A stretch of DNA of 64,000 bases from Crassostrea angulata. Taxonomy: Eukaryota. Both the position numbers and the translations under genes were made by a program. The DNA lies in NCBI RefSeq assembly GCF_025612915.1, contig NC_069115.1, positions 25,727,757 to 25,791,756 on the forward strand, read 5' to 3'. Shown piece after piece: positions 5,564 to 53,865 of the stretch; position 1 is the stretch's first letter; each line of letters starts with the position of its first letter. Below the pieces are notes generated by a model, which saw only the letters and a program-made list of their open reading frames with translations, searched no databases and had not been told where the DNA came from.

Positions 5564-7075
5564 AAAACAGTTAACTTTATTTGACTTTAGTCCCAATTGT
5601 TTTACACAAAGGTGTGAAACCATCGCACTGACAGGATATCACTCTACGCTTGAATGCACAGAATACACAGGAATGAGGCAGGAAGATAATCTGTGTAACG
5701 ATTGACCAAGAATAGTTCTACATGCCAAACAATTTTACTAATAGTTATATCAAATAATTGATTCATTTTACTGTGTTCTTTAACCGCTAAACGTATAAGA
5801 TGTTCCTTCCTGTAAAAAACATCCATTTTAAACTAAACGAGAGATATAGAAAAAACACAACAAATTAAACTTTCCAAACACAGTATATCATGCATCACGA
5901 ACATTGTAAAAAACTTAACTGTTAGACATACTTCTTATTTTCTTTATTAAAAATAAAACTAATAGAACGAAACTTTATCATGGAAGGAACACGTGGTAGA
6001 GCTAGCGGACTGATTTCATTGACAGGTGCAGTACGTGGACTCAAATCTGAAATTGCATGATTGATTCAATCACCGTACCATATTCTTTTATGAATACTAA
6101 TTTTATGAATATTTAGTATTGGATATTAGTATATTTCACATAAATGTACGTTAAATTAAATCTCTCTCTCTCTCTCTCTCCTGTGTTGTGCGATTAGACG
6201 AAGCTGTACGCGATATAGACTTTTTCTTTTGTCGTAAATAGGTGTGAAAACCCTCAAGGGCATATCGTTTTCTACCTAACTGAGTTTGTTAATCACTACA
6301 TGTATACACAGAAAATGATCGTGTCTGACTTAAACTTTATATGTATACACAGGAAATGCATACTGACATAACACGTTATGATTCCATGTGCTTTAACGCA
6401 GCACCAACTTTATAAATGAATGATGATTTTATTATTGAATGGAAAAATGGATTCGTTAGTTGATTCCCGACATTTGTTCATTTCTCAATTTAAAACATAC
6501 ACATGTATTAATTGACAGTTTACGGCGTTATGCGTGTCAACTTATAAAATGAGGAGATGAAATTGCTCTGCATTGATACAAGTTCATCTAATGAAAATAT
6601 TTAATTTTAAGATTGTTATAAAAACAGGATTAACAACTAATAGAAATAATAACTGAAATAAGCACGTCAAATACAAAGATATGTGTTATTTACACATCAC
6701 AAAATTTAACAGCGTAATAATCATGTAATGTTGTAATTCGAATGTAGTTTCCAATTTCATAAAATTCTATTTCATAAATGTAATTTATTAATTTTATAAT
6801 AATAATTTGGACCACAATTCATTTACAATGCAGCTGTTATGCTTAAACCTGAAGTTGCATATTTGACATGGATTTACGCGACCTGCATTGCCTGTAATGT
6901 ACAGTACAGGTAAAGTAACAACAACAAGCAGCAGCAGGAATAACGGTAAATCACACCGTCGCTGTGTCATCACGGTCGCAATCCATACTGCGATCAAAAA
7001 CCGCGATGGTGTATCGCGGGAACGATAAAAAATACCGTGACAGTAATTCGGGCCAATACAGGATCCGCGTTGCCT

Positions 7076-7077
<2 letters not shown>

Positions 7078-7106
<29 letters not shown>
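7078..7106. repeat. (TA)n microsatellite
   Basis: direct reading. Confidence 0.9.
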
Positions 7107-7246
7107 TAGGGATGTCAATCGAACGTCCGAGTATTGAATACTAAAATTGGTACTCGGTTACTCGGATGTATATATTTTTAAATATTCAGGAGCCTGAAGA
7201 TTATAATGAAACCGGTAGAGTTTTGAATCGGCTTTCTGTTATTTTT

Positions 7247-7250
<4 letters not shown>

Positions 7251-7300
<50 letters not shown>
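7251..7300. repeat. (AT)n microsatellite
   Basis: direct reading. Confidence 0.95.
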
Positions 7301-7304
<4 letters not shown>

Positions 7305-7305
7305 A

Positions 7306-7680
7306 ATTATTATGTTATGATATTGTATTATGTGATCAAATACCATAATGTATTACATGATTCAATGTCATATCATATTTTACAGTTACTGTATCATATT
7401 GCATAATTATTTTTATGGTAATGTATTGTATTATATGATAAATATTGTTAATATGATAGGATGCAATAATGTATTTTATATTATTGTATTAATAAGCATT
7501 TATTTATATCTTATAATACTGTATGAAATGAACATATGATTATCATTAAATTTTTTAACATGATATACGATATTGTGTCAAAACAGTATCCATAAGTATC
7601 CAAGATCATAAGGTATTATTTTCATATAATATGATAAAGTTGGTCTCATAAAGGTGATACCTCGTTAAAACGATACCTCG
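7306..7680. repeat. AT-rich palindromic family block plus a conserved tail also found at 20160-20345
   Basis: 7485-7680 aligns with 20160-20345 (…atactgtatgaaat…catatgatatacga…gtatccaagatcat…ctcataaaggtgat…). Confidence 0.7.
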
Positions 7681-8020
7681 TTTGGTAAGCTTTGTAATCT
7701 GTGATTACCTGTGTTTTGCTATGGTAATCAGGTGACTGTCAATGCCTCTGGTGAGCAATGTGGGCCATGGGCCTCTTGTTATCAGAGAGTTTAGAGTTTT
7801 GGGAAGGAATTGGTTTACTTACATCTATCCTTTAACCTACCGGTATTTATTATGATCACTACCACTTTAACTGAATATCTGAAGTTGTTAGTTAGTTAAG
7901 TAAGTCAAAGTAATTTATTGCTGTTTAGGTGAGAGATATGACTTTTGGGCCTCTTGATTGTTCTATTTTTATACATTTAAAGGTATGATTATTAAATGTT
8001 ATATTATTTTTGTCTTCTAG

Positions 8021-8112
8021 GAGATTGAGGGTATCATCAGTCCATTGGTCATTAACCAAGGAGAATCCTTACGATTAAAAGCAATTCAAGAATTTAAAGA
8101 TCGATTTGGAAA
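8021..8112 (+). CDS. MVP: Major vault protein homologue, internal exon (MVP repeat domain); translation EIEGIISPLVINQGESLRLKAIQEFKDRFG(N)
   Basis: acceptor tgtcttctag| and donor |gtaaat; aligns with vertebrate MVP ...[28 protein letters not shown]...; ends in phase 2 and joins exon 14509 in frame. Confidence 0.85.
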
Positions 8113-8880
8113 GTAAATATTTCTTTTTTCTTCTGATACTTGCTTGTTAACTCGAGTGCAGGTTTTGTGAAAATTTTTGTGAGTATTTAGTGTTTTTGTG
8201 AATTTTGCAAATTTTGCACTTTAACAGAGAACTCTTTTGATGTAAGAAACAATGGATATAATATGATATAATTTTGGCTGTGAAAACTGCATTCTATACT
8301 CAAGACTTTTTGGTATATGTGTTAATGTTTTGTATGCAGTATTTATACCCACAAAACACTTTATTGTATGTGTTACTTTATATGCCATATTTTTACCCCA
8401 CCCAATGAAGTTTTGAGGGATATAATATGTTTTGACCCGTCAGTCAATCCGTCAGTCTTTGTTTTCTTGTAATCTACAGAAAATTTTATGAAACTTCATT
8501 TGTAGGTATTTAGGACACAATGTACATATCTTATATTACCAGGAAAATCAATTTTCATTCATTTTGCTTGGAATTTCAGCATTTTGCAACTTAAAATTAT
8601 AGTATTTAACAGTTTGTAAGCATAGCATCTTTTAACGATTTCCAATCCTCAGCAAAGCAAGATAACTCGTTCTCATATTCGGAAATAGTTATTCGTACCG
8701 TGAAGTCCAGCATTTATATTTTTCGGAAATCTTTTGTCAAAAAAGGAGAATATGTTACTAGTAAACAATCCAACATGGAGGGAAACAATAAAGGTCGGTT
8801 CAAAATAGGGTTTCACTGACTGTGACATAAATAACAGCATTGATGAAACTCAGACATACGCAGATTATGTAAATTCTGGT

Positions 8881-9680
8881 TTGGAGTTGGATCACTGTAA
8901 AAATGATAGCGAAGAACTTTCTCGATCGACATATTCCAATATTTTTGATAGGCGAAGGATGGTAGAGTTTTCAGTTTTGGTTGATCATCTAGAGCGAGGA
9001 TGTGTTGTGTGCCATAAACCACTAAATTTAACAAAGTGTGTAAAAGAAAAACAGTATGGTCTTGTGAGCTTGTTGTACATAGAGTGTACCTGCTGCAAAG
9101 AGTTGACTATTGTACCAACAGGGAAGAGACACAACATTGGTGCAAATGGCCAAGGTCCTTTTGATGTGAATACTAAACTTGGCTAAATAATACACTGGGT
9201 ATCCATAGACCAATACTATTTGCTCATAACAGCAGAAAATTTGATGTGTTGTTTTATCCAGAGCAATGAGAAAATGCTCTGACTAATATACCATTGCAAG
9301 ACTGCATTATTAGATTCTGTGATACTCTGCCTATGTTGAAGAATCATGCATCTTGTAATACCACAAATTCAACTCTGGAGACCCTTGTGCTAGAAACTCT
9401 AGGCTGTACATTCGAGGCACATGATGCACTTGAAGATTGTACATATCTACAGAAACTTGTCGAACATCACAGTACAGATTCATATTATTTGAACTATACT
9501 TTCAGTATGGATTATATGATGCAAGTTGTACTACAGATGGAAGACTCTAAATCTAACTTGCAAACTTTGATGTCCTTGCTAACAAATAAAACAGTGCCTG
9601 AGAGCATGGTGAATAGGATGTCTCTCTCTGGCCTTTCAATACATCATCTGCAGTTAAACGTACCAAAGAGGAGGCTTTGA
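8881..9680 (+). pseudogene. Decayed DEDDh (DnaQ-like) 3'-5' exonuclease-domain relic with Cys-rich segment; motifs scattered over three frames
   Basis: frame a: ...CVVCHKPLNLTKC...ECTCCKE...GPFDVNTKLG (Exo I-like FDxxT); frame b (9180-9270): ILFAHNSRKFDVLF (Exo II-like AHNxxFD); frame c: TLETLGCTFEAHDALEDCTYLQKL (Exo III-like HxAxxD). Stops and frameshifts separate them. Confidence 0.4.
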
Positions 9681-10137
9681 TGGTGTACTGAGTGAATGTT
9701 TTCATGGAAAACCAAGAGTAACAAAGCGCAGGAACATTACTACATCTGTCGTTGACTTTTTGAAAGAAAGATAACTCTTTCTCATACATGATGAAAAGAT
9801 ATTTTCGTTTATTTCCATGATTATAATACTGGATACAGCACATTTTTATTTATTTATTTTACATCTACATATCTACTTAATGTTTTTATGTGCAGCAGTC
9901 AAGTGTAATCATGTGACATTTCTTTCTAGACTGATTTTTATAATTTTTTTGCTAAAATTAAACAACAATATCAGATTCATATTTATGTCCGTGGAATGAA
10001 CATATGCTTTGATACTCTACTGAATACAAATTAGCAAAACTTTGAAGTCACTTCTTTTTCCTTATATAAATCTATATGGGTGATAATGCATTATCTTTGA
10101 AAAACGCATGGAAACAATACATAGAAATGCTTCATTA

Positions 10138-11391
10138 GGGCCCCGCAAGGATTTGCAGGTGCCCTATAGTAATTACTCTGTCCGTCCTTCTGTCTGTCCG
10201 TCTGTCGCTCTTCCGTCCACAAATTTTCTGTTTTTTTTCTAATAATTTTTTTCATGGTTGCCCAATCAAGTTCAAATTTGGTATGGTAGTACAGTAGGCA
10301 GAAATACATATTTTGATGCTAAGTTTGGTTCTCTATGTCTTCCGGTTTGGAGCTGGGGTGGTGGGGTAGATTCCTTAACTATACATAATAATGAATGGGC
10401 AAAGAGAGATAACTGCTGAGAATGTTACCATTGTATACTTGGAAGACTGTGCAATATTTGTCCTTTGGGATTAATTAACTTTCCACAGGAAGAAAATCCT
10501 AAGCTTTACCTTTATCTGTCACACTGAGATTAATTACTGCACTGCCTGTGTCTGCAAATGAACTTTGTTTTGAAGTTAAGGTCAATTTTGAATGATGTGT
10601 AGTATTGTGTACATTCTTTGAAATATGGATTTAAAATATATAATATTCATACTTTATTTTGGTTAAAATACCGTACACAATGATTTATAATAATTTTATT
10701 GAATTCTAAAATCAAGATATATATTAAGATATCCTTGTTCACTATTTTATTTTTTAATTATTAATTTTATTTTTTTCTGCCTTTATGCTGTTAGTTTTAA
10801 CAGGTAATCAGATAATAACCCCATTCTGTCATTTCTGAAAAAAAAGTCTTATTGTAAATTTAGAAGAAAAGGATGAGAGAGCAGAACAATTAATCCCCTG
10901 GGATTAATTATCTTGCCTGCTGCAGAAAATTTAGAGGCTTATCTCTATCTGTCATATGAAGATTAATGAACACCTTTGTCTGCAACTGATGTTTGTTTTG
11001 AAGTTGAGGTCAACCCTTGGTGATACAATGTATTTGCATTCACTGAAGGCTTGCATTTTATAAAACACCTGTTTAAATCTTTTGTAAATACACAGTTAAT
11101 TTAGTTTTTTTTATAAGACATGAGGTTATCCCTGTTTTATGCAGATACAAGGTTACTATTTAGAGTTTTTGGACATTCAGGAATTATCTTGAAATTTTAA
11201 AAATACAGTTGTTACTTATAATTTTCATATATTTTTTTTACCACCTTATATATATTGCAGTTCTTTACATCTTATGCCGGGCATTTATTTTTCATCATTG
11301 TTAATATAATGAGGATGGAATTCAAAGTTTTTTTCACTTCTCTATATTAATTGTCATAGCGGGGCCCTTCCTGACTGGTCAGTTTTCTAGT
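10138..11391. repeat. ~1.25-kb dispersed repeat (family X), copy 1, uninterrupted; short inverted termini GGGCCCCGC / GCGGGGCCC
   Basis: near-identical to 36467-37416 + 38715-39115; contains (GTCY)n at 10180-10205. Confidence 0.8.
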
Positions 11392-12260
11392 TTATTATTA
11401 TAATCATTAGTATATGAGACTGTAAAATGTCATTTGCTTTAAAATTTACACTTTCAATTTTTGGTACCTGAGGATCGGAGAACCTTAAACCACTGCACAG
11501 CATTTTGAAAAACCTTTTTAGGACACAATATGTAAATCTTCATATTACCAGAAAATTCCTATTCCATTGTTTTTCTTGGAATTTTGGCATGTTTGAATTT
11601 AGAATTTGTTTTTGTTCAAGACAAAGGAATAGATTACATATTTGCAAGAAGTTTTGATCTGATGAATTTTTGCAACTAATGCCCTTTTTCAAATTATTTT
11701 GTGTACCGGTAGTTAATGCATACCCTGCCATTAATTATGTGTATTTGCATTGTCAAGAAATGGGGGGGTTGTTGTTACTTGTTTTGCTTTAATCATGGTT
11801 TTTCAGTCATTTTGTCCCCACTTCATTTTCCAGACTATACTGTTTGAAAAACAGCAAGTATAACCACAAGGCCTATTCAATATGTAAACTTAATTGAATA
11901 TAGAGATCTGATGTGGTAAAGTGCTGAAACAAATTATAAATAATTTATGAATACACGGTATAATAAGCAAACTGACATTTAAACAATTCACACAATAATT
12001 CCTATATATCATATATATCGATCATAGTTGTCCTAAGAAATAAATTGACAATAATCAAAGTACACAAATTCCAAAATGTACACCCATTATTAAAACAGAA
12101 GCCTTAGGAAAATTATGGAATGTAGGTAAAAAGTGGAAAATTTTATTGAAAAATATAAACATAGAATTTACACGTATAGGTGTGATGTGTACTTAATTTC
12201 TTTTATAAGAATCTTTAACTAAATTTTCTCTTCACTTTTTTAGTTAAAAAACAATTATTA

Positions 12261-13336: not shown

Positions 13337-13398
13337 TAATTGTTTCTAAATGAAGAAAGCCAGCTGGGGCATATATTGCTTACTGTGGAATCATTTTA

Positions 13399-14226
13399 GG
13401 AGTTGATTTTAATCAACTCTCCTATGCAGTTACTCGAAAACCGAAAGTGAAAAAGTGTTTGGACCTAATCACAAATCAACACTGCTGACAAGACTTACTT
13501 CTTGAAAATGATAGAAAAATTCGATGTTATGTACTGTAGTTTCATTAATATTCAAGGGTATCAATTTTTGTGGATAAAGTGAAAATCACAGTTTCAAGGA
13601 TACGTAAATTCATGGCCAATGACACTTTCAATACAAAATGTTAATAGAAATTGCGTTTCAATGAACATTTAATTTCATGGATCAACTTAACAACGAAATC
13701 CACGAAAATTCGTATTCAACGAATATTGATGAAACCACAGTATGCTGAAGCATTGTTTTTCAAGGAAACTTATCTATAAACACTCTGAAAATAGTAAGAT
13801 TTTATATAATACGAACAATTTAGATATTTTTATAGTCTCATGTATTCCTACGCCAGAATTTAATAAAGTCTCCTTAAACCAAACGCTTGGCTGCCTCCGT
13901 AAATCTCTGACAAGCAGAGAGGCTCTCTTGCTTGTCGGAGATTAACGGAGACAGCCGAGTGTCTGTTTGCACGAGACTAGAGTTCGATGTCAATAGTGTT
14001 TGGATGCATACAAATTTTAGAATTGTTTCAATTACTAATACATAGTTTGCAATCTATCTTTAAATATTACACAACACGAGTCATATGGGGTTTCATGAAA
14101 TTCTTGCTGGAAAAGTATAAAAATTCATATTATAAAAAAGTGCGTAATTCAAATACAGACTAGAAACTAATTGCCATGCAAGATAAGTTGATTTTAAAAT
14201 AAATGATAATCGATAAAATCAACTCC
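13399..14226 (+). mobile_element. Non-autonomous element family Y, copy 1 (termini GGAGTTGATTT...AAATCAACTCCC; internal perfect palindrome around 13905-13960)
   Basis: other copies at 43225-43825 (+) and 53024-53681 (-); internal palindrome ggctg(c/t)ctccgtaaatctc(t/c)gacaagca...tgcttgtcggagatt(a/t)acggag. Confidence 0.6.
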
Positions 14227-14508
14227 CATCAGTACTTAGGTACTTTGATTATTTGTGGGAGTCAATGTTTGTAGGTAGCTAAAAATTTCCTGGCTCTTGG
14301 GGGTGTATTTCGTTAGTAGTTGGTAGTTCTATTTTGTAATTAAATATTTAACAAATACTTGTATATATAAGTTCGTGGGGATGAAAATTCATTGGCAAGG
14401 GTTACCCATGACAATGATGATACCACAGTATTCAATACTCTCAGAGTGCTTGTTTTAGTGTAATTTTGTTTCACATTATCTTTTTTCTTTTTTAATAGCA
14501 AGCATGTT

Positions 14509-14578
14509 ACAGGTGAAGAATGGATGATCAATCAACCAGGGGCTTACCTGCCAGATGTATATGAGGAGGTTAGAAATA
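14509..14578 (+). CDS. MVP: MVP exon; translation (N)KHVTGEEWMINQPGAYLPDVYEE
   Basis: acceptor ttttaatag|, donor GAG|gttaga; matches vertebrate [23 protein letters not shown]. Confidence 0.85.
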
Positions 14579-17034: not shown

Positions 17035-17600
17035 ATATTGTATGATATAATATACATGTATAATTGAATCACATAATATTATATCATATGATAATGAAAT
17101 GAATAATATTTTATCATACGATAATGAAATACATAATATTTTATTATATGATACCATATTGTATAATTATATAATCTTACCTCTTGCTAAACTTTAAGGA
17201 AATTATTTGTTAACAGCAGTCACGTGGGGACGATGTATATCCCGTACATATATATAACTTATAATATAATATTGTTTCATGTGAAATGATATCGTATAAT
17301 ATGATATTGTATTATATATTATTGCATCACATGAAATTGTATCATATGATATTGTGAAATATAATATTGTAACATACAAGATTGTATTATATAATAGAAT
17401 ATTTTATCACATGATTGTATCATATATTACAATTTCATATTACGTATCATATAATTATTATATGATACAATATCATACACTAGAATATTGTATGATGTCA
17501 TATCATTTGTATAGCATGATAAAATACCATATCATTTTATATGAAACAATATCACTTTTTGATATAATGTTAAATGTAGCAATATCATATTGAATCATTA
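17035..17600. repeat. AT-rich palindromic minisatellite-like block (same family as 2161-2900)
   Basis: atgatattgtat / atacaatatcat motif reiterated. Confidence 0.8.
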
Positions 17601-29071: not shown

Positions 29072-29157
29072 GTATTTTTAGTGTACTTTTGAGGGGGGAA
29101 AAAATTCATTCAGAAAAAATGACATAATTGAATTTTCTGGGTTGTGTTGTGGTTTAG

Positions 29158-29224
29158 GATAGCTGGGGAGCAGTGGCTGCTGACTGGAGTGGAGACAGAT
29201 CATTATTTTCCAGAGATTGGTGTG
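29158..29224 (+). CDS. MVP: MVP exon; translation (R)IAGEQWLLTGVETDHYFPEIGV
   Basis: 86-bp intron; acceptor ggtttag|, donor GTG|gtgggt (the alternative |gtaatg gives an in-frame stop in the next exon); matches [24 protein letters not shown]. Confidence 0.8.
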
Positions 29225-29392
29225 GTGGGTAATGTAGTGAGCATGTGAAAGTCATATTATCATATTATCAAAAATTATGAACTTATTGTTTATTTTCATG
29301 TAAAGTGCTTTAATATGTACATAGTTTTGTGATGTTTGTGCATTATAACTGAAAGTAACAACAAGATTTTTTAAAGAGTTTTTGGCACACAG

Positions 29393-29534
29393 GAGGTGGT
29401 ATCAGAGGAGACTATTAAGGTCCTATGGAAAGGACAATACTGTGTAATTAAAGATGTAGTGGACAGGCATGGAAAACCACAGCTGGGAAAAAGAGAACTG
29501 AGAGTTGGGCCATGCAGTTTCTTCCTTCATCCAG
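29393..29534 (+). CDS. MVP: MVP exon; translation EVVSEETIKVLWKGQYCVIKDVVDRHGKPQLGKRELRVGPCSFFLHP(G)
   Basis: acceptor cacacag|, donor CCAG|gtaaga; matches [45 protein letters not shown]. Confidence 0.85.
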
Positions 29535-30179
29535 GTAAGAACACATCTTTGCCGGTGTGTGAATCTTATAGCTATATACTTTAAAAAGCAAATCTGTCTA
29601 ACATCTATTGTCATCATTAAAAAACCCAAGTCAGTGGCAAAAAAAGTAAATATTAGAACTTTTTTGATATATCTTTAATTTGTATACTCTCATAGAATAC
29701 CCTTTTCATCTCACATTTGCATTTATTTATAGAGATCGATGCTGTAAAAAACGCAAAAAAGTATCTTAGAGTCCAAAATCTGGTATCTGTCCTACAGAAG
29801 AATTCTAAATATAATAAAGAAAAAATTAAATTTTAGAAAAATATGTTTAATCGCCTTCAAAAGTTCTACAATTGTCCATAATAAGATGTGATTCTTTTTA
29901 TACCCCTCTTCAAAAAAGGGAGGGCATGTTGCTTTGATGCTGTCTGTCTCTCTGTCGGTTGGTCCACCAATGGTTTACATTCATTTTCTTCTTTGCAAAG
30001 ATTGCACATATTGAGATTTTGTATGCAGATTTTTTATAATAATATCTAGGTCAAGTTTGATTTTGGGTATGATTAAGCAATTTTCGACAGAGTTACAGTA
30101 CCGATCAGATCCAACCTAATAGAAAGTAAACCGGTGGTCACTCCCTAGGAACATTTTTCACAACATTTCCTTAACTTGT

Positions 30180-34326: not shown

Positions 34327-36466
34327 GTAATAAAATATTGATTTGCATTGGTACGGTCTTCAGGCAAAGAGAGCAATGTGCAACAAATGTTGTGCCGAAA
34401 TTTCAGATCTGCCACTGTTATGTGCAACTATTGACGTTTTTTGAGAACAAGTCATACAATGTTTCCCCTAGCATCGCTGTGAACAAAAAATGATGGCTAT
34501 TGTTTGGAATGAAATATGATAAGACAGTCGATGATTTTCAAAAAGTTTCTAGAGTTTAAAATAAAGGCAAAAGAGTGGTAAACTTCTGAGAGGTAAATTT
34601 TAGCCAAAATGGTGAATGTAGACAGTGAAGCGACGAGGCAAAAGTTTTGAACTCTTTGCATGGTGATTGTGAAGATGAAAATGATTTTGATGGATTTAAT
34701 TCTGCAGTACATATACTGTGGAATCATTAGATTTCGTGGTGGCTCAATTTTCGTGGAATTCGTGGGTACCTGTCATCCACGAATTAACATCCTCCACGAA
34801 TTATATATTAGGGTTATAAAGTCATATTTCGTTTTGTAGGTATAAGAAAATACACGAAATTACGTCCCCACGAACCTGTAAAATTTCAGCAATCTACGAA
34901 AATTGGCCCCCACGAAATCTGATGATTCCACAGTAACTTCAGAGATGTTAATTTATTGATTGATGTGCCTAAGATGGACTTTATGCCAAAAAATATTTTA
35001 TTTAAGTTTTGGTTTTAGGCAAGGACTCCATTGGTCTTATATATGTAGTTGTAAGAGGTGCTGAAAATCAAGTCTCAACCAAGACTCATTGGCATAGCCT
35101 TTGGCATACACTGCCAACCCTCTAACCAATGAGGTATAATTGAGGCATGATATGTTGACTGACATTTGTACCCGTTAACCTGGTGCCATATTCTTCGTTT
35201 TTACAGATATTTATACCCCTGCAAACGAAATTTAGGGGGGAACATTGGAATTGCCCTGTTCGTCTGTCTGTAGACACAATTTTTACCCCCCTCCCTTTAT
35301 AAACTATTAAACTTCTTCATGGAATTGTCTCAACATTTGTACATATGTTAACACTATCTGAAAATGTGCTCCTGCAAGTATTGTTCAGAAATCACACAAG
35401 ATTCAATGATTTTATGACAGTTTTCATTTTTCTTGTCCAATATATTGTACGCTAATGTTGAAAAGCAACCGAAGGGAGGTAATCCTATTCCTTAATAGCA
35501 AACACACTAAAAATGTTAGATCTGAAATAAATATATTTATAGAGGGTTTTTTTGTCCTTGCTTCATAACCAGATATATGTTTTATAAGTACCTGTATTTT
35601 ATTAACTTTCAATGCCAAATATTTGTTTGTCAACGATAAATTCTTAGGAGCTAATAAGAACATGAAAGACAAGTGTGGCTGAATTTATTTGTCCCAAGGG
35701 GGGCATTATTTGAGCCATAGTTTAGATGGAACATGTGTTTAGGGAAAATTAATAATTTGTCAAATCAGTAGTGTAGATTCAAAGTTCAAGTGGGGCCACA
35801 ATGGGGGAGTCGAAGTTTTACATAGGAATATATAGACTAAATCTTTGTTTTAGTGCATGTTTCTTCTGTTTAATTGTTTACAATTTCTATTTGCTAACCA
35901 TATTTGGGTGTTACATTTCAAATTATAAGCAAGATACAAAGCTTTATACACAGTTATGAGACCATTTTTTGGTTTACATTTTAAATGCTGAATAGGAAAT
36001 ACCAAGTTAAAAATCTAGCAAAATTGTGAGCTCTAGCTGTATCTTGCTTATAATTCTACGATTGACGTTAATTAAAAGATTTTGGTTGTCAATGATCATT
36101 AGAAATGTCTCGCTAAATGTTAAATACTTCTACAAAAAAAGTAAAAGATGATATGCTGTAACAACTCTCTTTACAGGATGAATTATATGTATTCCACATT
36201 AATTTTCATAGTTTTTCAGACACAAGTAAATAAAAACAACACCGTAAGAACAGTTTCCATAGTTTTGTTACGGGGATAAAGGCATAAGACTGTTCCTGAG
36301 AAAATATTACAGTGTAAATGTAGTAGTATTTTCTTTGTATGATAGCAAGGAAAACGCCACGTCTTAGGTTCTTTATATTTATTATAATTATTTCATTATG
36401 AACCCTGTAAAAAGGTTAACAATAGCAATTTTAGCATACATTATAACAACAAACATATTATATTTA

Positions 36467-39115
36467 GGGCCCTGCAAGGATTTGCGGGTGCCCTATAGTA
36501 ATCACTCTGTCCGTCCATCCTTCTGTCCGTCCGTCTGTCACTCTTCCGTCCACAAATTTTTTGTTTTTTTCTAATAACTTTTTTATGGTTGCCCAATCAA
36601 GTCCAAATTTGGTATGGTAGTTCAGTAGGCAGAAATGCATATTTTGATGCTAAGTTTGGTTCTCTATGTCTTCTGGTTTGGAGCTGGGGTGGTGGGGTAG
36701 ATTCCTTAACTATACATAAGAATGAATGGGCAAGAGAGATAACTGCTGATAATGTTACCATTGTATACTAGGAAGGTTGTGCAATATTTGTCCTTTGGGA
36801 TTAATGAACCTTCCACAGGAAGAAAATCCTAAGCTTTATCTTTATCTGTCACATTGAGATTAATTACTGCACTGCCTGTGTCTGCAAATGAACTTTGTTT
36901 TGAAGTTAAGGTCAATTTTGAATGATGTGTAGTATTGTGTACATTCTTTGAAATATGGATTTAAAATATAATATTCATACTTTATTTTGGTTAAAATACC
37001 GTACACAATGATTTATGATAATTTTATTGAATTCTAAAATCAAGATATATATTAAGATATCCTTTTTCACTATTTTATTTTTAATTATAATTTATTTCAT
37101 TTTTTTCTGCCTTAATGCTGTTAATTTTAACAGGTAATCAGATAATAACCCCATTCTGTCATTTCTGAAAAAACAAATCTTATTGTAAATTTAGAAGAAA
37201 AGGATGAGAGAGCAGAACAATTAACCCCCTGAGATTAATTATCTTGCCTGCTGCAGAAAATTTAGAGGCTTATCTCTATCTGTCATATGAAGATTAATGA
37301 ACACCTTTGTCTGCAACTGATGTTTGTTTTGAAGTTGAGGTCAACCCTGGGTGATACAATGTATTTGCATTCACTGAAGGCTTGCATTTTGTAAAACATC
37401 TGTTTAAATCTTTTTTAACGAGGCCGAGTACAGAACGAGTACGCACGCTTTCGCGCAGCGTTTCATTTGTATTGTGACGTCATCTTTTTGCTTTGTTGAC
37501 GCCATGGCGTGATGGTTTCAACTGCAGATATTCAGCGAAATTTATTGAAAATAGCTCGTTTGATGCGTAAAATTGATATTATATTGTGGAATAAACATAA
37601 ATGTCTCAAAGTATAAGCTATATTTGGGCTCGGGTCGAAAAACGTGAAGAGGGTTCAGCAAGCCTAGCCCTCTGTCACGTTTTCTTAACCCACCTAAATA
37701 TAGCTTAAATCATATATTTCAAGACAGTAGCCATGTATTTTATATTAATGACCTTTAATGTGTGATGTTATATATTTATTTATTACTAAAATATGTCTGA
37801 ATGTTTTAATAATATTTTAAAGATCACCATTTTCATCTTTGTCAAATAAAAAATAGCCATTATCTGAAAAACTGGTAAATTGGGCATACAAAAAACAACT
37901 TTGATAAGACCCCTGGAACAAACCAGGAGGTAAAAGGATTTTTTTATTTCACCATTTGATGCCTTTTAGCAATGACTTTAATATGTAGAATAGAAAAAGA
38001 AATCCCTAGGGCAGAAGTTTAAGAAAATTGTTAAAAATGTGCAAAATTGATACATTTCAAGCAAAATCCCATATGGTCCTATGTTAAAAGTTAACAAACT
38101 TTGAGATGACCCCTTAAACAAACAGTGTGGTAAATGTCTTATTTTTTTATCTGAAAATAATAATTATAACAGTAGAAATTCATGTAAAAATTTTCGTTAA
38201 AAAAATCTAGGGCAGAAAAAATTAGACCCAGCCTCAGCCTCATTAAATACACATTTAATTTAGTTTTTATGCCCCCTTCGAAGCTTTGCTGCTGTCTGTC
38301 GGTCAGTCTGTCGGTCCACCAACAGTTTCCGCTCATTTTCTTTGCAGAGGATGAACATATTGATATCAAATTTGGTATATAGGTTTATCATGATAATATC
38401 TAAGTCAAGTTCGATATTGGGTACAATCGAGCAATTTTCGACAGAGTTATAGCCCTTGGACTTAGAAAAATTCTAGTTTTTTGCAGTTTCCGCTCATTTT
38501 CTTCGCAGAGGATGAACATATTTAAATGAAATTTGGTATATAGGTTTATCATGATAATATCTAGATCAAGTTCGATATTGGGTACCATCGAGCAATTTTC
38601 GACAGAGTTATGGCCGTTGGACGTAGAAAAATAACAGTTATTTGCAGTTTACGTTCATTTTCTTTGTGGATGTTTCCAAGGGAGGGGGGCATAAATGTTT
38701 CACAAACATCTCTTGTTTTTATAAGACATGAGGTTATCTCTGTTTTATGCAGATACATGGTGACTATTTAGAGTTTTTGGACATTCAGGAATTTTCTTGA
38801 AATTTTAAAAATACAGTTGTTACTTATAATTTTCATATTTTTTTTCAAATGTAATCAAATTAAACTTTCATTCCATGAGCTGCACCCTGTTATTTTTACC
38901 CCTCAGTTTAACACTTTAATTGTTTGATGAAAATCATATCCTGACTACAAATCATGAGATCCTATATATTGCAGTTCTTTACATCTTATGCCGGGCATTT
39001 ATTTTTCATCATTGTTAATGTAAAGAGGATGGAATTCAAATTGTTTTTCACTTCGGTATATTAATTGTCATAGCGGGGCTCTTCCTGATTGGTCAGTTTT
39101 CTAGTAATACAATGA
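36467..39115. repeat. Family X copy 2, interrupted (36467-37416 and 38715-39115) by a 1.3-kb composite insertion
   Basis: collinear with 10138-11391 except for 37417-38714. Confidence 0.8.
37417..38714. mobile_element. Composite insertion inside family X copy 2; its 3' part (38267-38694) is a TTATGCCCCC-TIR MITE with two ~155-bp tandem units
   Basis: absent from copy 1 between tgtttaaatctttt and tataagacatgaggttatc; MITE homologous to 17626-18033. Confidence 0.65.
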
Positions 39116-43150: not shown

Positions 43151-43224
43151 TCAATTCTGTAATTAATAGTCAATGAAAATTCCTTTAAAAAAGTCCGGAA
43201 ATCAGCTGGATTATTTGGATTTTT

Positions 43225-43825
43225 GGGAGTTAATTTTTATCAACTCTCCTATGCAGTCACTTGGACAAACCGAAAGTGAAACAGTGTTTGGACCTCAGCA
43301 CAAATCATTGCTCCTGACAAGACTTAGTTCTTGAAAATGATTGATGAATTCGATGTAATGTATGCTAAAGCATTGTTTTTCAAGGAAACTTATTTACAAA
43401 TACCTTAAAAATAGTCAGATTTTAAATGGTACGAACAATTTAAATATTTTTTGTAGTCGTATGTATTCCTACGCCAGAGTTCAATATAGTCTAATTTAAC
43501 TCGACGCTCGGCTGTCTCCGTAAACCCTTGTCGGAGATTTACGGTGTCAGCCGAGCGTTTGATTGAACGAGACTAGAGTTCAATATTGCTTGGATCCATA
43601 CAATTTTCGAGAAATATTTTTACCAGTGAAACATAGTTTGATTGAATTAATTTTATCTTTAAATATTATTTAACATGATTCATGTGGAGGTTTCTCGACA
43701 TTCTAGTCGAAAAAGTTCAAAAATTCATATTATAAAAATATGCGTAATTCAAATTAGAAACTACGTATACATGTACTTGTCATGCAAAATAACTTATCAA
43801 ATAAACATCGACAAAATCAACTCCC
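43225..43825 (+). mobile_element. Family Y element, copy 2
   Basis: gggagttaatttttatcaactctcctatgcag ... gacaaaatcaactccc. Confidence 0.6.
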
Positions 43826-44365
43826 GTCAGTTCTTCAGTACTTTGATTTACAATTTTGCGCATGCGCATCACATTCATGCTAATCACAGGGCCAGCCATT
43901 TTGATGTCTTCGAGAAAGACTGATTCTGGTTGGACCATCAGGAATATTAACTAATGAAATTGAGTTAAACATTTAATTCTATCACAATGGCTGGTCTGGT
44001 CAGAAGTTGATGTGGCTGCAGAATAAAAGTTCAGTTTGGAGAGTATTTAAGGAATTTTATTGGAATTTAAGGATGTAAGTAGCGTGTGTTTAATGTGAGA
44101 TTAGTGCGAATGTTTCTCGACTTGTTGCAATACTGCTGTTGTCATAGGCAATATCCCATCGTTAGCCCTGGACCGGTAAATGTTCGAGTAAAAATAAACT
44201 GGCGACTTCGAGAGAATAATGATGTGTATCTCCGCAATTTTAAGACCCATCAATTTGAAATTTGGCATAAGTGTATCTTAGACATTACTTTTCTGAAAAA
44301 TACATGCATATTGCAAGTGTTGTAAAAAATAATTGATTTATTAGGCTTTTGAAGCGAGCTGGTAG

Positions 44366-52330: not shown

Positions 52331-53023
52331 TGATTTTGCATATTCACATCAGAGCGGGGGTATCACTAGTGAGCATTGGCTCTCAGATATCTTGTTTTGT
52401 TAAATTTAGAGTTGCTGTACTTTAAGGGTTAATACGCAGTGTTGCTAAAATTCATGAAATGCCTTTTAATGATTATCACTAGCTGGAGGGATGTCTTTTG
52501 TTGAAATTGATATGCAGTATGTAGGCCCCTTATGATTAGAGTATACATGAGAATCAGGGGAATTAAGTAAAATGCGAAACTTGCTGCTATGACTGTTGTT
52601 TTGACTTCACACTGTGAAATTGGAAGTTACAGATGGGAGGTAAAATAACACAAAAGGAGGTGGGTGGGACATTGTAAACTATACATCGGTAAGTTTCTGA
52701 CATGTGATGGTACAACATGCACATGGTACAGAAGGTCAACCCTTTGCAGGAAATATTAGCTTGTGGAGGTCTAAAAAGCTGAAATGTAATGAAAAAAGGG
52801 TGAAATGAAATTGTCAAAATCTCAGAAAAACCACTGCGTAGAAAATTTAACACATCCAGACTAGAAATTTTCCACAGAAATTGGTGACTGGCCTAATGAG
52901 GAGAGAATTAAAGGTATAAGACTTAGTGCTGAGCTGAATGTGAACTGAGGAAGTTCTAGTTACAGAGTTTCAAAGACATTAATTCCTAGCTACAGTGAGT
53001 TGTATTAAAAAATCAAAGTACTG

Positions 53024-53681
53024 AAGAACTGACGGGACTTGATTTTGTCGATGTTTATTTATCTTAAAATCAATGATATGTTATTTTGCATGACAAGAAC
53101 ATGTAGTTTCTAATTTGTATTTGAATTACGCACATTTCTATAATATGAATTTTCGAATTATAATATTTTCGACAACAATGTCGAGAAACCCCCATATGAA
53201 ACATGTTAAATAAAATTTAAAGATAAAAATTAATTCAATCAAACTATGTATCAGTAAAAAAAAATATTTCTCGAAAATTGTATGGATCCAAGCAATCTTG
53301 AACTCAAGTCTCGTTCAACCAAACGCTCGGCTGACACCGTAAATCTCCGACAAGCAAGAGAGACTCTCTGCTTGTCGGAGATTTACGGAGACAGCCGAGT
53401 GTCGAGTTGAACAAGACTATATTGAACTCTGGCGTAGGAATACATACGACTACAAGAAATATCTAAATTGTTCGTACCATTTAAAATCTGACTATTTTCA
53501 AGGTATCTATAAATAAGTTTCCTTAAAAAACAATGCTTTAGCATACATTACATCGAATTCATCAATCATTTTCAAGAACTAAGTCTTGTCAGGAGCAATG
53601 ATTTGTGCTGAGGTCCAAACACTGTTTCACTTTCGGTTTGTCCGAGTGGCTGCATAGGAGAGTTGATTAAAATCAACTCCC
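53024..53681 (-). mobile_element. Family Y element, copy 3 (reverse orientation)
   Basis: reverse complement aligns with 43225-43825; perfect internal palindrome 53325-53395. Confidence 0.6.
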
Positions 53682-53865
53682 AAAAACTGTCGCATGCGAC
53701 CAAATTTAGGCCAGCCGGCCTCTTGTTTCAAATTTTGTAATCCCCCTTTCCATTCCAAAGTTTTCTTTGAGTAAATTTAATAAGGTGATACAAATATTTA
53801 CTTTAGAGCTGTGGAAATCAGTTGAGTAATCTGACCTTTGGCGTATTGTTATTTTATTTCGCTAG

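Follow-up and report, generated by a model that had tools for sequence, protein, structure and literature searches.

The KolobokD lineage in the DNA transposon superfamily Kolobok was described in 2022 (Kojima & Bao 2022, Mob DNA 13:24; PMC9587614). Its elements duplicate TTAA and have GG..CC (RR..YY) termini; the encoded hallmarks are a DxxH motif and a CCHC finger, together with a DEDDh exonuclease at the C-terminus, and the position of the CCHC finger just after the first catalytic D is common to KolobokD, KolobokP, KolobokE and Kolobok5 (PMC9587614). The hosts given there are molluscs, arthropods and cnidarians, the first two of which are also found here, and the similarity of the exonuclease to Exuperantia and TREX that was reported for the lineage is reproduced in the present analysis (PMC9587614).

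Cut-and-paste movement and TTAA duplication are also found in piggyBac elements, and Mutator/MuDR elements (MULEs) have a related DDE fold with the C/DxxH signature common to hAT, P and MuDR as well as to Kolobok and Dada. The ends of piggyBac elements read CCC..GGG and their transposase is of the DDD type (Pfam PF13843), while MULEs generate duplications of ~8-11 bp and usually carry long terminal inverted repeats (TIRs).

Among host genes, the closest systems are those in which an exonuclease is followed by a SAM-like PML_C domain, i.e. the EXO+SAM layout of PML-1 PXL and Exuperantia (Exu) (PMC10123124; PMC12934764; PDB 9MRC/9MRD). The Plex9/PML host genes lack a transposase, and the human PML module is catalytically dead.

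Results

The window analysed here is a 64,000-nucleotide stretch of Crassostrea angulata DNA, to which all coordinates refer unless another sequence is named. One Vault repeat is encoded in two halves by its exons at 8021-8113 and 14494-14571, and the relic noticed between these exons by a first-pass annotation thus does lie inside an MVP intron. We are highly confident that positions 8636-11484 of this intron represent a DNA transposon of KolobokD type (Kolobok superfamily). The copy is dead and non-autonomous, has the same orientation as the gene (sense) and went into a TTAA. The coding remnant spans 8700-9774 of the element, and the originally proposed extent of 8881-9680 was accordingly too small.

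The remnant is collinear with residues 1-176 and 705-903 of an intact C. angulata protein of 903 aa (XP_052706958.1, here P0008), in which PF20700 covers residues 98-433, RNase_T 629-795 and PML_C 829-901. With the intact oyster homologues (P0001/P0008) as queries, tblastn returned E values of 3e-90 for 9180-9768 and ~1e-75 for 8700-9183. These values are far beyond chance, and the three peptide strings originally read in shifted frames are present where they had been placed. Residues 1-43 are encoded by 8700-8810 (plus strand, frame 0; 72% identity by tblastn with P0008, 6-codon gap). Residues ~47-176, the N-terminal zinc-finger region of the Kolobok transposase, follow at 8821-9183 (plus strand, frame 1), as delimited by PF20700 and by tblastn with P0008. 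This segment matches the PF20700 profile ("Mutator-like"; positions 2-76 of 357) with E 4.3e-8 and 32.9 bits (cut-off 26.5), and is 63-70% identical to the N-terminus of a Saccostrea transposase (P0005). In frame 1 it contains the strings GCVVCHKPL (8998-9024), CTCCKEL (9085-9105) and GPFDVNTKLG (9154-9183). The Cys cluster and GPFDVNTKLG had been taken for Exo I, a reading that does not hold: PF20700 and the homologue alignment place them in the N-terminal zinc finger of the transposase, at residues ~134-176 of the intact protein, and the true Exo I, YFDLETTGL (D632/E634), is found 450 residues further on.

Residues 705-862, which take in the C-terminal half of the DEDDh exonuclease as well as the beginning of the PML_C/SAM-like domain, are encoded by 9180-9656 (plus strand; 83% identity, E 5e-90 by tblastn with P0008), in frame 0 save for 9248-9283, which is in frame 2. 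Exo II is ILFAHNSRKFD (frame 0, 9213-9245) and Exo III is HDALED (9420-9437), the latter inside the frame-0 string LETLGCTFEAHDALEDCTYLQKL at 9390-9458. Both align to invariant family columns (H720/N721/D726 and H784/D789), and their suspected resemblance to exonuclease motifs proved to be genuine. Of the homology checks suggested beforehand, tblastn with an intact homologue was strongly positive, whereas PF00929 (RNase_T) applied directly to the frameshifted relic remained sub-threshold (E 0.064, 14.2 bits, cut-off 24; profile 86-162 of 164); it is thus through the intact homologues that the exonuclease is assigned. The PML_C (SAM-like) remnant at 9552-9768 (plus strand; coordinates mapped from P0008 residues 829-901) is split by a frameshift at ~9657, and its frameshift-corrected translation matches PF25244 with E 7.7e-9 and 36.1 bits (cut-off 27.1; profile 1-74 of 75). 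Residues 864-903 are encoded by 9661-9774 (plus strand, frame 1; 90% identity by tblastn with P0008 864-902), up to the native stop at 9772-9774.

The stops and frameshifts mentioned in the first-pass annotation are real. The start codon at 8700 has changed from ATG to GTG, a frameshift occurs near 8812, two compensating shifts are located at ~9246 and ~9285, a further shift is found at ~9657, and a TAA stop occupies 9184-9186. This stop results from an internal deletion of ~528 codons that joins residue 176 to residue 705 (junction at 9180-9183; junction plus stop 9180-9186, plus strand). The two homology blocks overlap by TGGC, the frame-1 reading ...AAA CTT GGC TAA overlapping the frame-0 reading TGG CTA AAT (W L N); we infer both the breakpoints and this microhomology from the protein alignment. 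Exo I (DxE) is absent from the window copy, as the corresponding FDLETTG (residues 631-637) falls inside the deleted residues 177-704. In the Saccostrea and Mytilus relatives the exon-1 donor is conserved, and the left breakpoint lies 4-7 nt upstream of it. Because of this offset, 9180-9186 is not a splice junction, and a splice-mediated deletion, which would also call for an acceptor that is missing here, was rejected.

The left end is defined by a TTAA target-site duplication at 8632-8635 (plus strand), directly outside the terminal repeat and exactly where homology to a Saccostrea copy (L001) begins. The adjoining left TIR (8636-8652, plus strand), CGATTTCCAATCCTCAG, is degenerate, agreeing with the reverse complement of the right end at 13/17 positions, and is homologous to the Saccostrea left end, TTAA|GGGACTCCAATCCTCAG. 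A TIR search limited to 8100-10400 gave nothing convincing. The right end was located with a terminal motif derived from the comparison of Saccostrea and Mytilus: TTAAGG[GT]ACTCC..CCTCAG, allowing ≤3 mismatches, has a single match in the window, where by our estimate ~0.01 would be expected by chance. This match is the right TIR at 11468-11484 (minus strand), which reads GGTTCTCCGATCCTCAG on that strand and is followed by the right TTAA duplication at 11485-11488 (plus strand). Terminal repeats had been anticipated around 8600-9800; they do exist, with the right one situated well away from 9800. Compared with the 5'-RR..YY-3' pattern, the window copy ends in ...CC-3' on the right (GG on the complement) and begins with CG on the left, with a TIR match of 13/17. 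The relatives L001, L007, L008, L005, L002 and L009 have GG at both ends, and the CG of the window copy is taken to be a mutated terminus in place of the canonical RR; both this CG and the imperfect TIR weigh against the KolobokD reading.

Between the left TIR and the GTG lies the 5' untranslated leader (8653-8699, plus strand), with 77-78% identity to L001 6948-7058, which spans leader and start codon. The 3' non-coding part is in two pieces. The first, 9775-10134 (plus strand), can be aligned to a further copy (L003) to at least 9912, the final 16 bases of L003 matching the window again at ~10014-10030, and stops where an unrelated repeat starts. This nested 1.26-kb repeat (10135-11391, plus strand) has sharp ends and is no part of the Kolobok element; a second copy of it, 95% identical and with other flanks, is found at 36464-37418 / 38713-38845 / 38963-39105. 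The second piece, 11392-11467 (plus strand), leads into the right end, and 11447-11488 aligns to the right end of the Saccostrea copy (L001 20116-20158; 79%, E 2.6e-5), 360 nt past the stop codon of that copy. A 24-nt direct repeat in the leader (8654-8677) recurs at 9763-9786. A tandem second copy upstream was considered on this basis and dropped, as no wider similarity surrounds the repeats. The flanks outside both TTAAs are alike in direct orientation (~8475-8598 vs 11497-11606, 78%), an observation that counts against the KolobokD reading. No Rfam families, tRNAs or tandem repeats were detected in the intron.

The protein of the intact element has ~900 aa. It opens with a zinc finger, followed by a DDE transposase core that carries the CCHC finger and the DxxH motif; after a linker come the DEDDh 3'-5' exonuclease and, at the C-terminus, the SAM-like PML_C domain. 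This architecture was matched by 41 homologues from bivalves and insects, while the exonuclease module matches 2,273 cluster representatives. In an alignment of 15 homologues (P0008 numbering), D245, D338/D340, D360-K-N-H363 and E486 are invariant or nearly so. The CCHC finger (C284-x2-C287...H300-x-C302) and the zinc finger formed by H420, H425, C428 and C433 are invariant across these 15 proteins, and all of these regions are deleted in the window copy; the exonuclease residues D632/E634, D726 and H784/D789 are invariant as well. TTAA flanks are present at both ends of the Saccostrea copy L001 and of the Mytilus copies L007 and L008. These two copies come from different chromosomes of Mytilus trossulus, agree at 99.9% of positions over 7.5 kb and have sharp ends, TTAA|GGTGAGAGGTACGTAAATG / TTAA|GGTAACAGGTACGTAAATGG. 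The family TIR motif moreover precedes Kolobok ORFs at close distance in L005 and L002, and in L009 it delimits a MITE-like element of 619 bp. Apparent insertions in the Saccostrea copy turned out to be introns, at positions common to Mytilus. The deleted locus itself is real, since an independent read set (L004) also contains it, with 99.5% identity, and L003, an 87-88% identical paralogous or orthologous copy, has almost the same deletion along with indels. A metagenome scan with the junction 19-mer yielded chance seeds only.

For classification, the transposase core of P0008 (residues 242-489) was compared with curated Kolobok transposases taken from Data S5 of PMC9587614. It aligns end to end with Repbase Kolobok-7/-1/-9_CGi from the Pacific oyster at 49-51% identity (E 5e-75 to 2e-82), and is 38% identical to Kolobok-1_ADi and 28% identical to KolobokE-1_LGig (E 4e-19). 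At ~50% identity over the core, Kolobok-7/-1/-9_CGi therefore represent a different family within the Kolobok superfamily. As the DDE core is absent from the window copy, its superfamily assignment runs via the 176 residues left at the N-terminus, via the ends of the element and via intact homologues, and its membership in the KolobokD lineage is by architecture, not by tree placement. The features in common with KolobokD are TTAA, short TIRs and, in the relatives, GG..CC at both termini. The DDE transposase of the intact relative has DxxH, its catalytic E is preceded by a zinc finger and its first D is followed by a CCHC finger, and downstream of the transposase a DEDDh exonuclease is encoded. 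The window copy differs from such elements in being internally deleted and frameshifted, without DDE core or Exo I. Membership in piggyBac was rejected: the ends of this family are GG..CC, the Pfam scans list no piggyBac-transposase family and the transposase matches PF20700/Kolobok. The same holds for MULEs, as the duplication here is TTAA (4 bp) and the TIRs have 17-24 nt; the "Mutator-like" label of PF20700 is generic, the family being Kolobok. Thus, the earlier description as a pseudogene or a relic of an unclassified mobile element was right as to the mobile element and wrong as to its being unclassified. The combination of nuclease and zinc finger, previously regarded as unassignable, belongs to the published KolobokD lineage (PMC9587614), as seen from TTAA, TIRs, motifs and the 49-51% Kolobok identity.

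Three other origins of the relic were weighed. The relic lacks introns, and its left breakpoint (residue 176) is no more than 4-7 nt away from the exon-1 donor that is conserved in the Saccostrea and Mytilus relatives. Both points would suit a processed retrocopy whose KolobokD template transcript had been spliced aberrantly, from exon 1 to a cryptic site within the last exon. However, the junction is off the donor, no AG precedes the right breakpoint, which falls mid-exon, and both non-transcribed TIRs are kept within TTAA flanks, with neither variable duplication nor poly(A) tail; we consider a retrocopy very improbable. The two halves could also be unrelated, namely a pseudogene of a host DEDDh exonuclease (TREX/Plex9/Exu-like) beside a zinc-finger fragment, given that stand-alone exonuclease + PML_C proteins of ~270-370 aa are known (e.g. 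K1PJH7, 355 aa) and that the exonuclease half of the relic is similar to them. Yet K1PJH7 is identical to the C-terminus of 874/903-aa fusions in the same 90% cluster, one Mytilus exon encodes the transposase C-terminus together with Exo I, and both halves lie within one TTAA-flanked TIR pair that is conserved in Saccostrea, which leaves this origin with hardly any probability.

It is also highly unlikely that the relic has been exonised or domesticated as a functional alternative MVP exon or peptide. Its sense orientation would permit this, and in a RefSeq model (XP_011441619.2, P0009) the MVP exon upstream (100% identity with 8021-8113) is indeed joined with a Kolobok ORF, which begins with RRMVEF and corresponds to the window sequence from 8955 onward. 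Every frame of the window copy is nevertheless interrupted, and the conservation signal is that of a decaying repeat only, L003 being 12-13% diverged with indels. A chimeric gene model, or else another copy, is the likelier explanation of the RefSeq model, which continues into a full-length transposase and exonuclease that are missing from the window.

The exonuclease module of the intact element was further compared with host proteins. Its best match among solved structures is zebrafish Plex9.1 (phmmer E 5e-26 to 6e-30), with a Foldseek target-normalised TM of 0.92, 36% identity and all DEDDh residues present. Plex9/PML host genes are stand-alone or TRIM-fused and have no transposon ends, whereas the KolobokD module forms one protein with a transposase and lies within TIRs. 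Fish Plex9-type proteins are 33-45% identical to the bivalve KolobokD exonucleases, as close as KolobokD copies are among themselves, and a crude NJ tree nests them among the exonucleases of KolobokD. Out of 1.84 billion representatives, the 7th rank goes to a teleost "exodeoxyribonuclease III", and a newt protein combines Kolobok transposase remnants with exonuclease and PML_C. These vertebrate matches stem from an exhaustive search of representatives; a word-indexed protein search with the module gave none.

Discussion

In its present state the window copy is the product of a DNA-level internal deletion, which removed residues 177-704 and with them the whole catalytic DDE core, the linker, Exo I and any introns there. 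The microhomology of 3-4 nt (TGGC) at the junction points to an abortive-gap-repair type of product of cut-and-paste transposons. After the deletion, the start codon was lost, at least five frameshifts as well as premature stops accumulated, the left terminal dinucleotide mutated, and another repeat became nested inside the copy. Neither transposase nor exonuclease can any longer be produced from it, and splicing removes it along with the intron. The KolobokD kind being already known, the locus is ordinary genomic debris. The region should be masked as Kolobok/KolobokD rather than annotated as an exonuclease pseudogene or a "Mutator-like" gene, and the analysis in addition draws attention to a RefSeq model, probably chimeric, in which an MVP exon is combined with the ORF of a transposon.

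In the living family, the KolobokD transposase would, by analogy with what is known of the family, bind the short TIRs, excise the element and reinsert it at TTAA. According to those who described the lineage, the fused exonuclease may trim the 3' ends of DNA intermediates during transposition (PMC9587614). Alternatively, a putative TREX1/Plex9-like role can be envisaged, in which it would degrade cytosolic or competing retroelement DNA. The KolobokD module offers a tractable system for studying the use of an exonuclease to a cut-and-paste transposon.

The main text of PMC9587614 mentions neither a SAM-like PML_C behind the exonuclease nor the particular closeness to Plex9 of fish, and no paper linking Kolobok with PML or Plex9 was found in the literature searched. 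We tentatively suggest, as a proposition somewhat short of an even chance, that the KolobokD exonuclease + PML_C module belongs to the same family as the PML C-terminal exonuclease and Plex9, possibly also Exuperantia, and that these host genes were domesticated from KolobokD. The reverse, in which the transposon captured a host gene, is also compatible with the data. The DEDDh-SAM exonuclease carried by the transposon, apparently active, is the nearest relative of Plex9 and the PML C-terminus, and could explain the origin of the vertebrate anti-retroelement module. The window relic itself adds nothing to this question beyond leading to it. As for Drosophila Exuperantia (PDB 5L80), the likeness lies in the EXO-like and SAM-like parts (Foldseek 316 columns, E 1e-11), and matches to Pfam Exu_RNase_H_like were found, with SAM_Exu and PML_C overlapping on an insect homologue. 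Exuperantia is, however, a pseudo-nuclease RNA-binding protein of 17-20% identity, whereas KolobokD retains the DEDDh residues.

Domain architecture of the coding remnant

The first-pass annotation had read three strings in this intron as Exo I, Exo II and Exo III of a DnaQ-like exonuclease, an observation that is real, yet partly misread. All three exist, in shifted frames: a Cys cluster (8998-9105) with GPFDVNTKLG (9154-9183) in frame 1, followed by ILFAHNSRKFD (9213-9245) and LETLGCTFEAHDALEDCTYLQKL (9390-9458), both in frame 0. However, a Pfam scan of the frameshift-corrected translation of the relic assigned the Cys cluster and GPFDVNTKLG to PF20700 "Mutator-like transposase" (positions 2-76/357, E 4e-8, above the curated cut-off), and the C-terminal part to PF25244 "PML_C" (E 8e-9). 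The match of the relic itself to RNase_T (PF00929) was weak (E 0.064) and confined to the latter half of that domain (positions 86-162/164), whereas the intact C. angulata homologue P0008 carries RNase_T at residues 629-795, between PF20700 (98-433) and PML_C (829-901). In protein searches the exonuclease half was 81-83% identical to K1PJH7_MAGGI, whose 90% cluster holds the full-length proteins P0008 (903 aa) and P0009 from C. gigas (874 aa), and the N-terminal half shared 63-70% identity with a transposase fragment from Saccostrea. The relic runs collinear with residues 1-43, ~47-176, 705-862 and 864-903 of P0008; absent are residues 177-704, i.e. the whole DDE core and the real Exo I (YFDLETTGL, D632/E634). 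Consequently, the PF20700 match and the collinearity rule out GPFDVNTKLG as Exo I.

The decay by stops and frameshifts was borne out. The start codon is lost (ATG to GTG at 8700), frameshifts occur near 8812 and 9657, and a TAA stop at 9184-9186 is the product of the deletion junction. A compensating frameshift pair lies around 9246 and 9285, between which frame 2 reads VVLSRAMRKCSD in agreement with the intact protein, and there are also small in-frame deletions.

Assignment to KolobokD

Despite the Pfam name, Mutator identity was set aside in favour of Kolobok because of the TTAA duplications and GG..CC termini, Kolobok elements being characterized by TTAA duplications and 5'-RR..YY-3' termini (Kojima & Bao 2022, PMC9587614). 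In the KolobokP, KolobokE and KolobokD lineages the first D is followed by a CCHC finger, and a DEDDh exonuclease is encoded by KolobokD, with hosts among molluscs, arthropods and cnidarians (PMC9587614). Aligning 15 homologues showed no or almost no variation at D245, C284/C287/H300/C302, D338/D340, D360..H363, H420/H425/C428/C433, E486 and the DEDDh residues. P0008 residues 242-489 are 49-51% identical (E 5e-75 to 2e-82) to Kolobok-7, Kolobok-1 and Kolobok-9_CGi (Data S5 of PMC9587614), and 41 proteins were found to share the architecture (Saccostrea, Pinctada, Mytilus, C. virginica and several insects). Our conclusion is that the relic is a KolobokD copy with an internal deletion, the lineage being set by architecture and signatures rather than tree placement. 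The nuclease plus zinc-finger combination, previously deemed unassignable, thus fits a described lineage (PMC9587614), of which this is an ordinary dead copy.

The window copy does nothing, since it has no intact frame, DDE core or Exo I and its left terminus is damaged; it is taken out together with the MVP intron. Intact family members, judging from superfamily membership, would undergo cut-and-paste transposition at TTAA, and the describers of KolobokD proposed 3'-end degradation of DNA intermediates as the role of the fused exonuclease (PMC9587614).

Element ends

Inverted repeats sought close to the coding remnant gave nothing convincing, and the TTAA-flanked terminal repeats emerged via relatives. 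In Mytilus trossulus, two loci on separate chromosomes code for the same 872-aa protein and have exactly 7,541 bp in common at 99.9% identity; the termini of this shared block read TTAA|GGTGAGAGGTACGTAAATG and, with the far end taken as its complement, TTAA|GGTAACAGGTACGTAAATGG. Likewise, alignability with the closest Saccostrea cucullata copy, L001, begins exactly after TTAA (window CGATTTCCAATCCTCAG, L001 GGGACTCCAATCCTCAG). A motif search located the inverted partner of the left-end motif at 11468-11484, followed by TTAA; this stretch aligns with the right end of L001, CCTGAGGGACGGAGTACC before TTAA, 360 nt past the L001 stop codon. The terminal motif also occurs just upstream of the Kolobok ORFs at two further loci (L005 and L002). 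The left-end motif after TTAA and its inverted partner before TTAA, matched by the L001 ends, thus place the element at 8636-11484, with TTAA on both sides and TIR identity at 13/17 positions. The extra length is due to an unrelated 1.26-kb repeat nested at 10135-11391 in the 3' part.

Within the element, a 24-nt direct repeat (22/24) is present at 8654-8677 in the 5' leader and at 9763-9786 across the stop codon. Its core GATAACTC recurs imperfectly in L001, reading GGTAACTC in the 5' leader and GATAACTC at the stop codon; chance or a role as a subterminal binding motif could account for the repeat. Outside both TTAAs, ~8475-8598 and ~11497-11606 resemble one another as direct repeats (78% over some 90-120 nt), and the insertion target may be a local duplication or a tandem repeat with a period of ~160 bp. 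The Mytilus copy L008 has a perfect 15-nt inverted repeat outside its TTAAs (~9880-9894, ACTGTATCGTATGCC; ~17433-17447, GGCATACGATACAGT); its insertion site may have been palindromic or part of another element. A 619-bp TTAA-flanked element in Saccostrea cucullata contig L009 (2765-3383) has the same terminal repeats (TTAAGGTATTTTGATCCTCAG, complement TTAAGGTACGCCGATCCTCAG) and is probably a MITE from the same Kolobok family.

Origin of the deletion

Introns occupy conserved positions in the Saccostrea and Mytilus relatives. A retrocopy was considered as the source of the shortened form. On the left the break falls 4-7 nt before the conserved exon-1 donor, and on the right within the last exon, with no acceptor; the relic element also keeps both TIRs and its TTAA flanks, features at odds with a retrocopy. 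Because the breakpoints are off the splice sites, the two homology blocks overlap by TGGC, and TIRs and TTAA are kept, the sequence fits a DNA-level deletion with microhomology. Interrupted gap repair is a source of such deletions in class II elements, and following excision it would have left an internal deletion of this kind. Contig L003, 87-88% identical, has nearly the same deletion with ~60 further bases missing across the junction; this could mean either that the deleted form was itself amplified or that L003 is the orthologue in a different species.

The MVP locus

The MVP intron setting holds, because the flanking exons at 8021-8113 and 14494-14571 together encode one 42-position Vault repeat (profile positions 2-22 and 24-42). 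The relic lies in sense orientation. The DNA of the window is that of an oyster, and the nearest proteins to it were from Magallana/Crassostrea gigas and C. angulata, and the independent-read Logan contig L004 matched 8083-9933 at 99.5% identity. The flanking exons also came up in a tblastn search with a human MVP sequence; two more MVP exons (~29156-29245 and ~29400-29569, with a short intron between) surfaced as one low-identity match with stops, at 29156-29569. In the RefSeq C. gigas model XP_011441619.2 (P0009), exon 8021-8113 (31/31 aa identical) is fused to a full-length KolobokD ORF starting RRMVEF, the window counterpart of which is 8955-9183. This is either a chimeric gene model or a sign of a full-length copy at the MVP site in some haplotype.

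Relationship to Plex9 and PML

The PDB entries touching the intact relatives P0001 (oyster) and P0008 are 9MRC, 9MRD, 9L8B and 5L80. By sequence, the P0001 exonuclease module matched "exodeoxyribonuclease III" entries including zebrafish Plex9.1 (9MRC/9MRD; E 3e-22 to 6e-30) and Exuperantia only at 0.03, and neither TREX1 nor ERI1 was matched in this solved-structure search. An AlphaFold model of the intact module (mean pLDDT 85) superposed on Plex9.1 with a target-normalised TM of 0.92, followed by Exuperantia (both EXO-like and SAM-like domains), TREX2 and TREX1. The exonuclease plus PML_C module is the nearest relative of Plex9.1, and the EXO+SAM layout is in common with Exuperantia and PML-1. 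Bivalve KolobokD exonucleases share 33-45% identity with Plex9-type sequences from fish; the C. angulata KolobokD exonuclease shares only 29-39% with the remaining KolobokD copies. A midpoint-rooted NJ tree, which carries no support values, places the fish sequences among the KolobokD exonucleases. An exhaustive search of 1.84 billion representatives returned 2,273 cluster representatives at E <= 0.001, with a teleost protein ranked 7th (E 2e-55) and teleost "exodeoxyribonuclease III" proteins among the top matches. The newt protein XP_078534085.1 combines Kolobok transposase remnants, exonuclease and PML_C. Given the nearness to Plex9.1, the layout, and the teleost and newt matches, it is a reasonable hypothesis on these comparisons that the exonuclease module of PML and Plex9 may have come from a transposon, and one that reaches beyond the window locus. 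The PML/Plex9 papers trace PML back to an origin in jawed vertebrates and make no reference to transposons, a 2026 preprint describes the SAM subdomain as unknown in other nucleases except Exu, and no Kolobok-PML link was found in the literature searched.

Other repeats

The nested 1.26-kb interspersed repeat is unclassified (start TTAGGGCCCCGCAAGG, end GCGGGGCCCTTCCTGACTGGTCAGTTTTCTAGT). Its second copy (36464-37418 / 38713-38845 / 38963-39105) is 95% identical, with other flanks and extra insertions. In L001, ~2.9 kb between the 5' leader and the first coding exon (~7060-9995) holds several short TTAA-flanked elements whose ends are TTAAGGTCTTCCGTCTTCAG; with their Kolobok-like termini, they seem to form a separate MITE family. 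The MVP introns also contain three copies of another repeat family (13394-14254, 43221-43848 and 53007-53685), which are 74-88% identical, one of them inverted.
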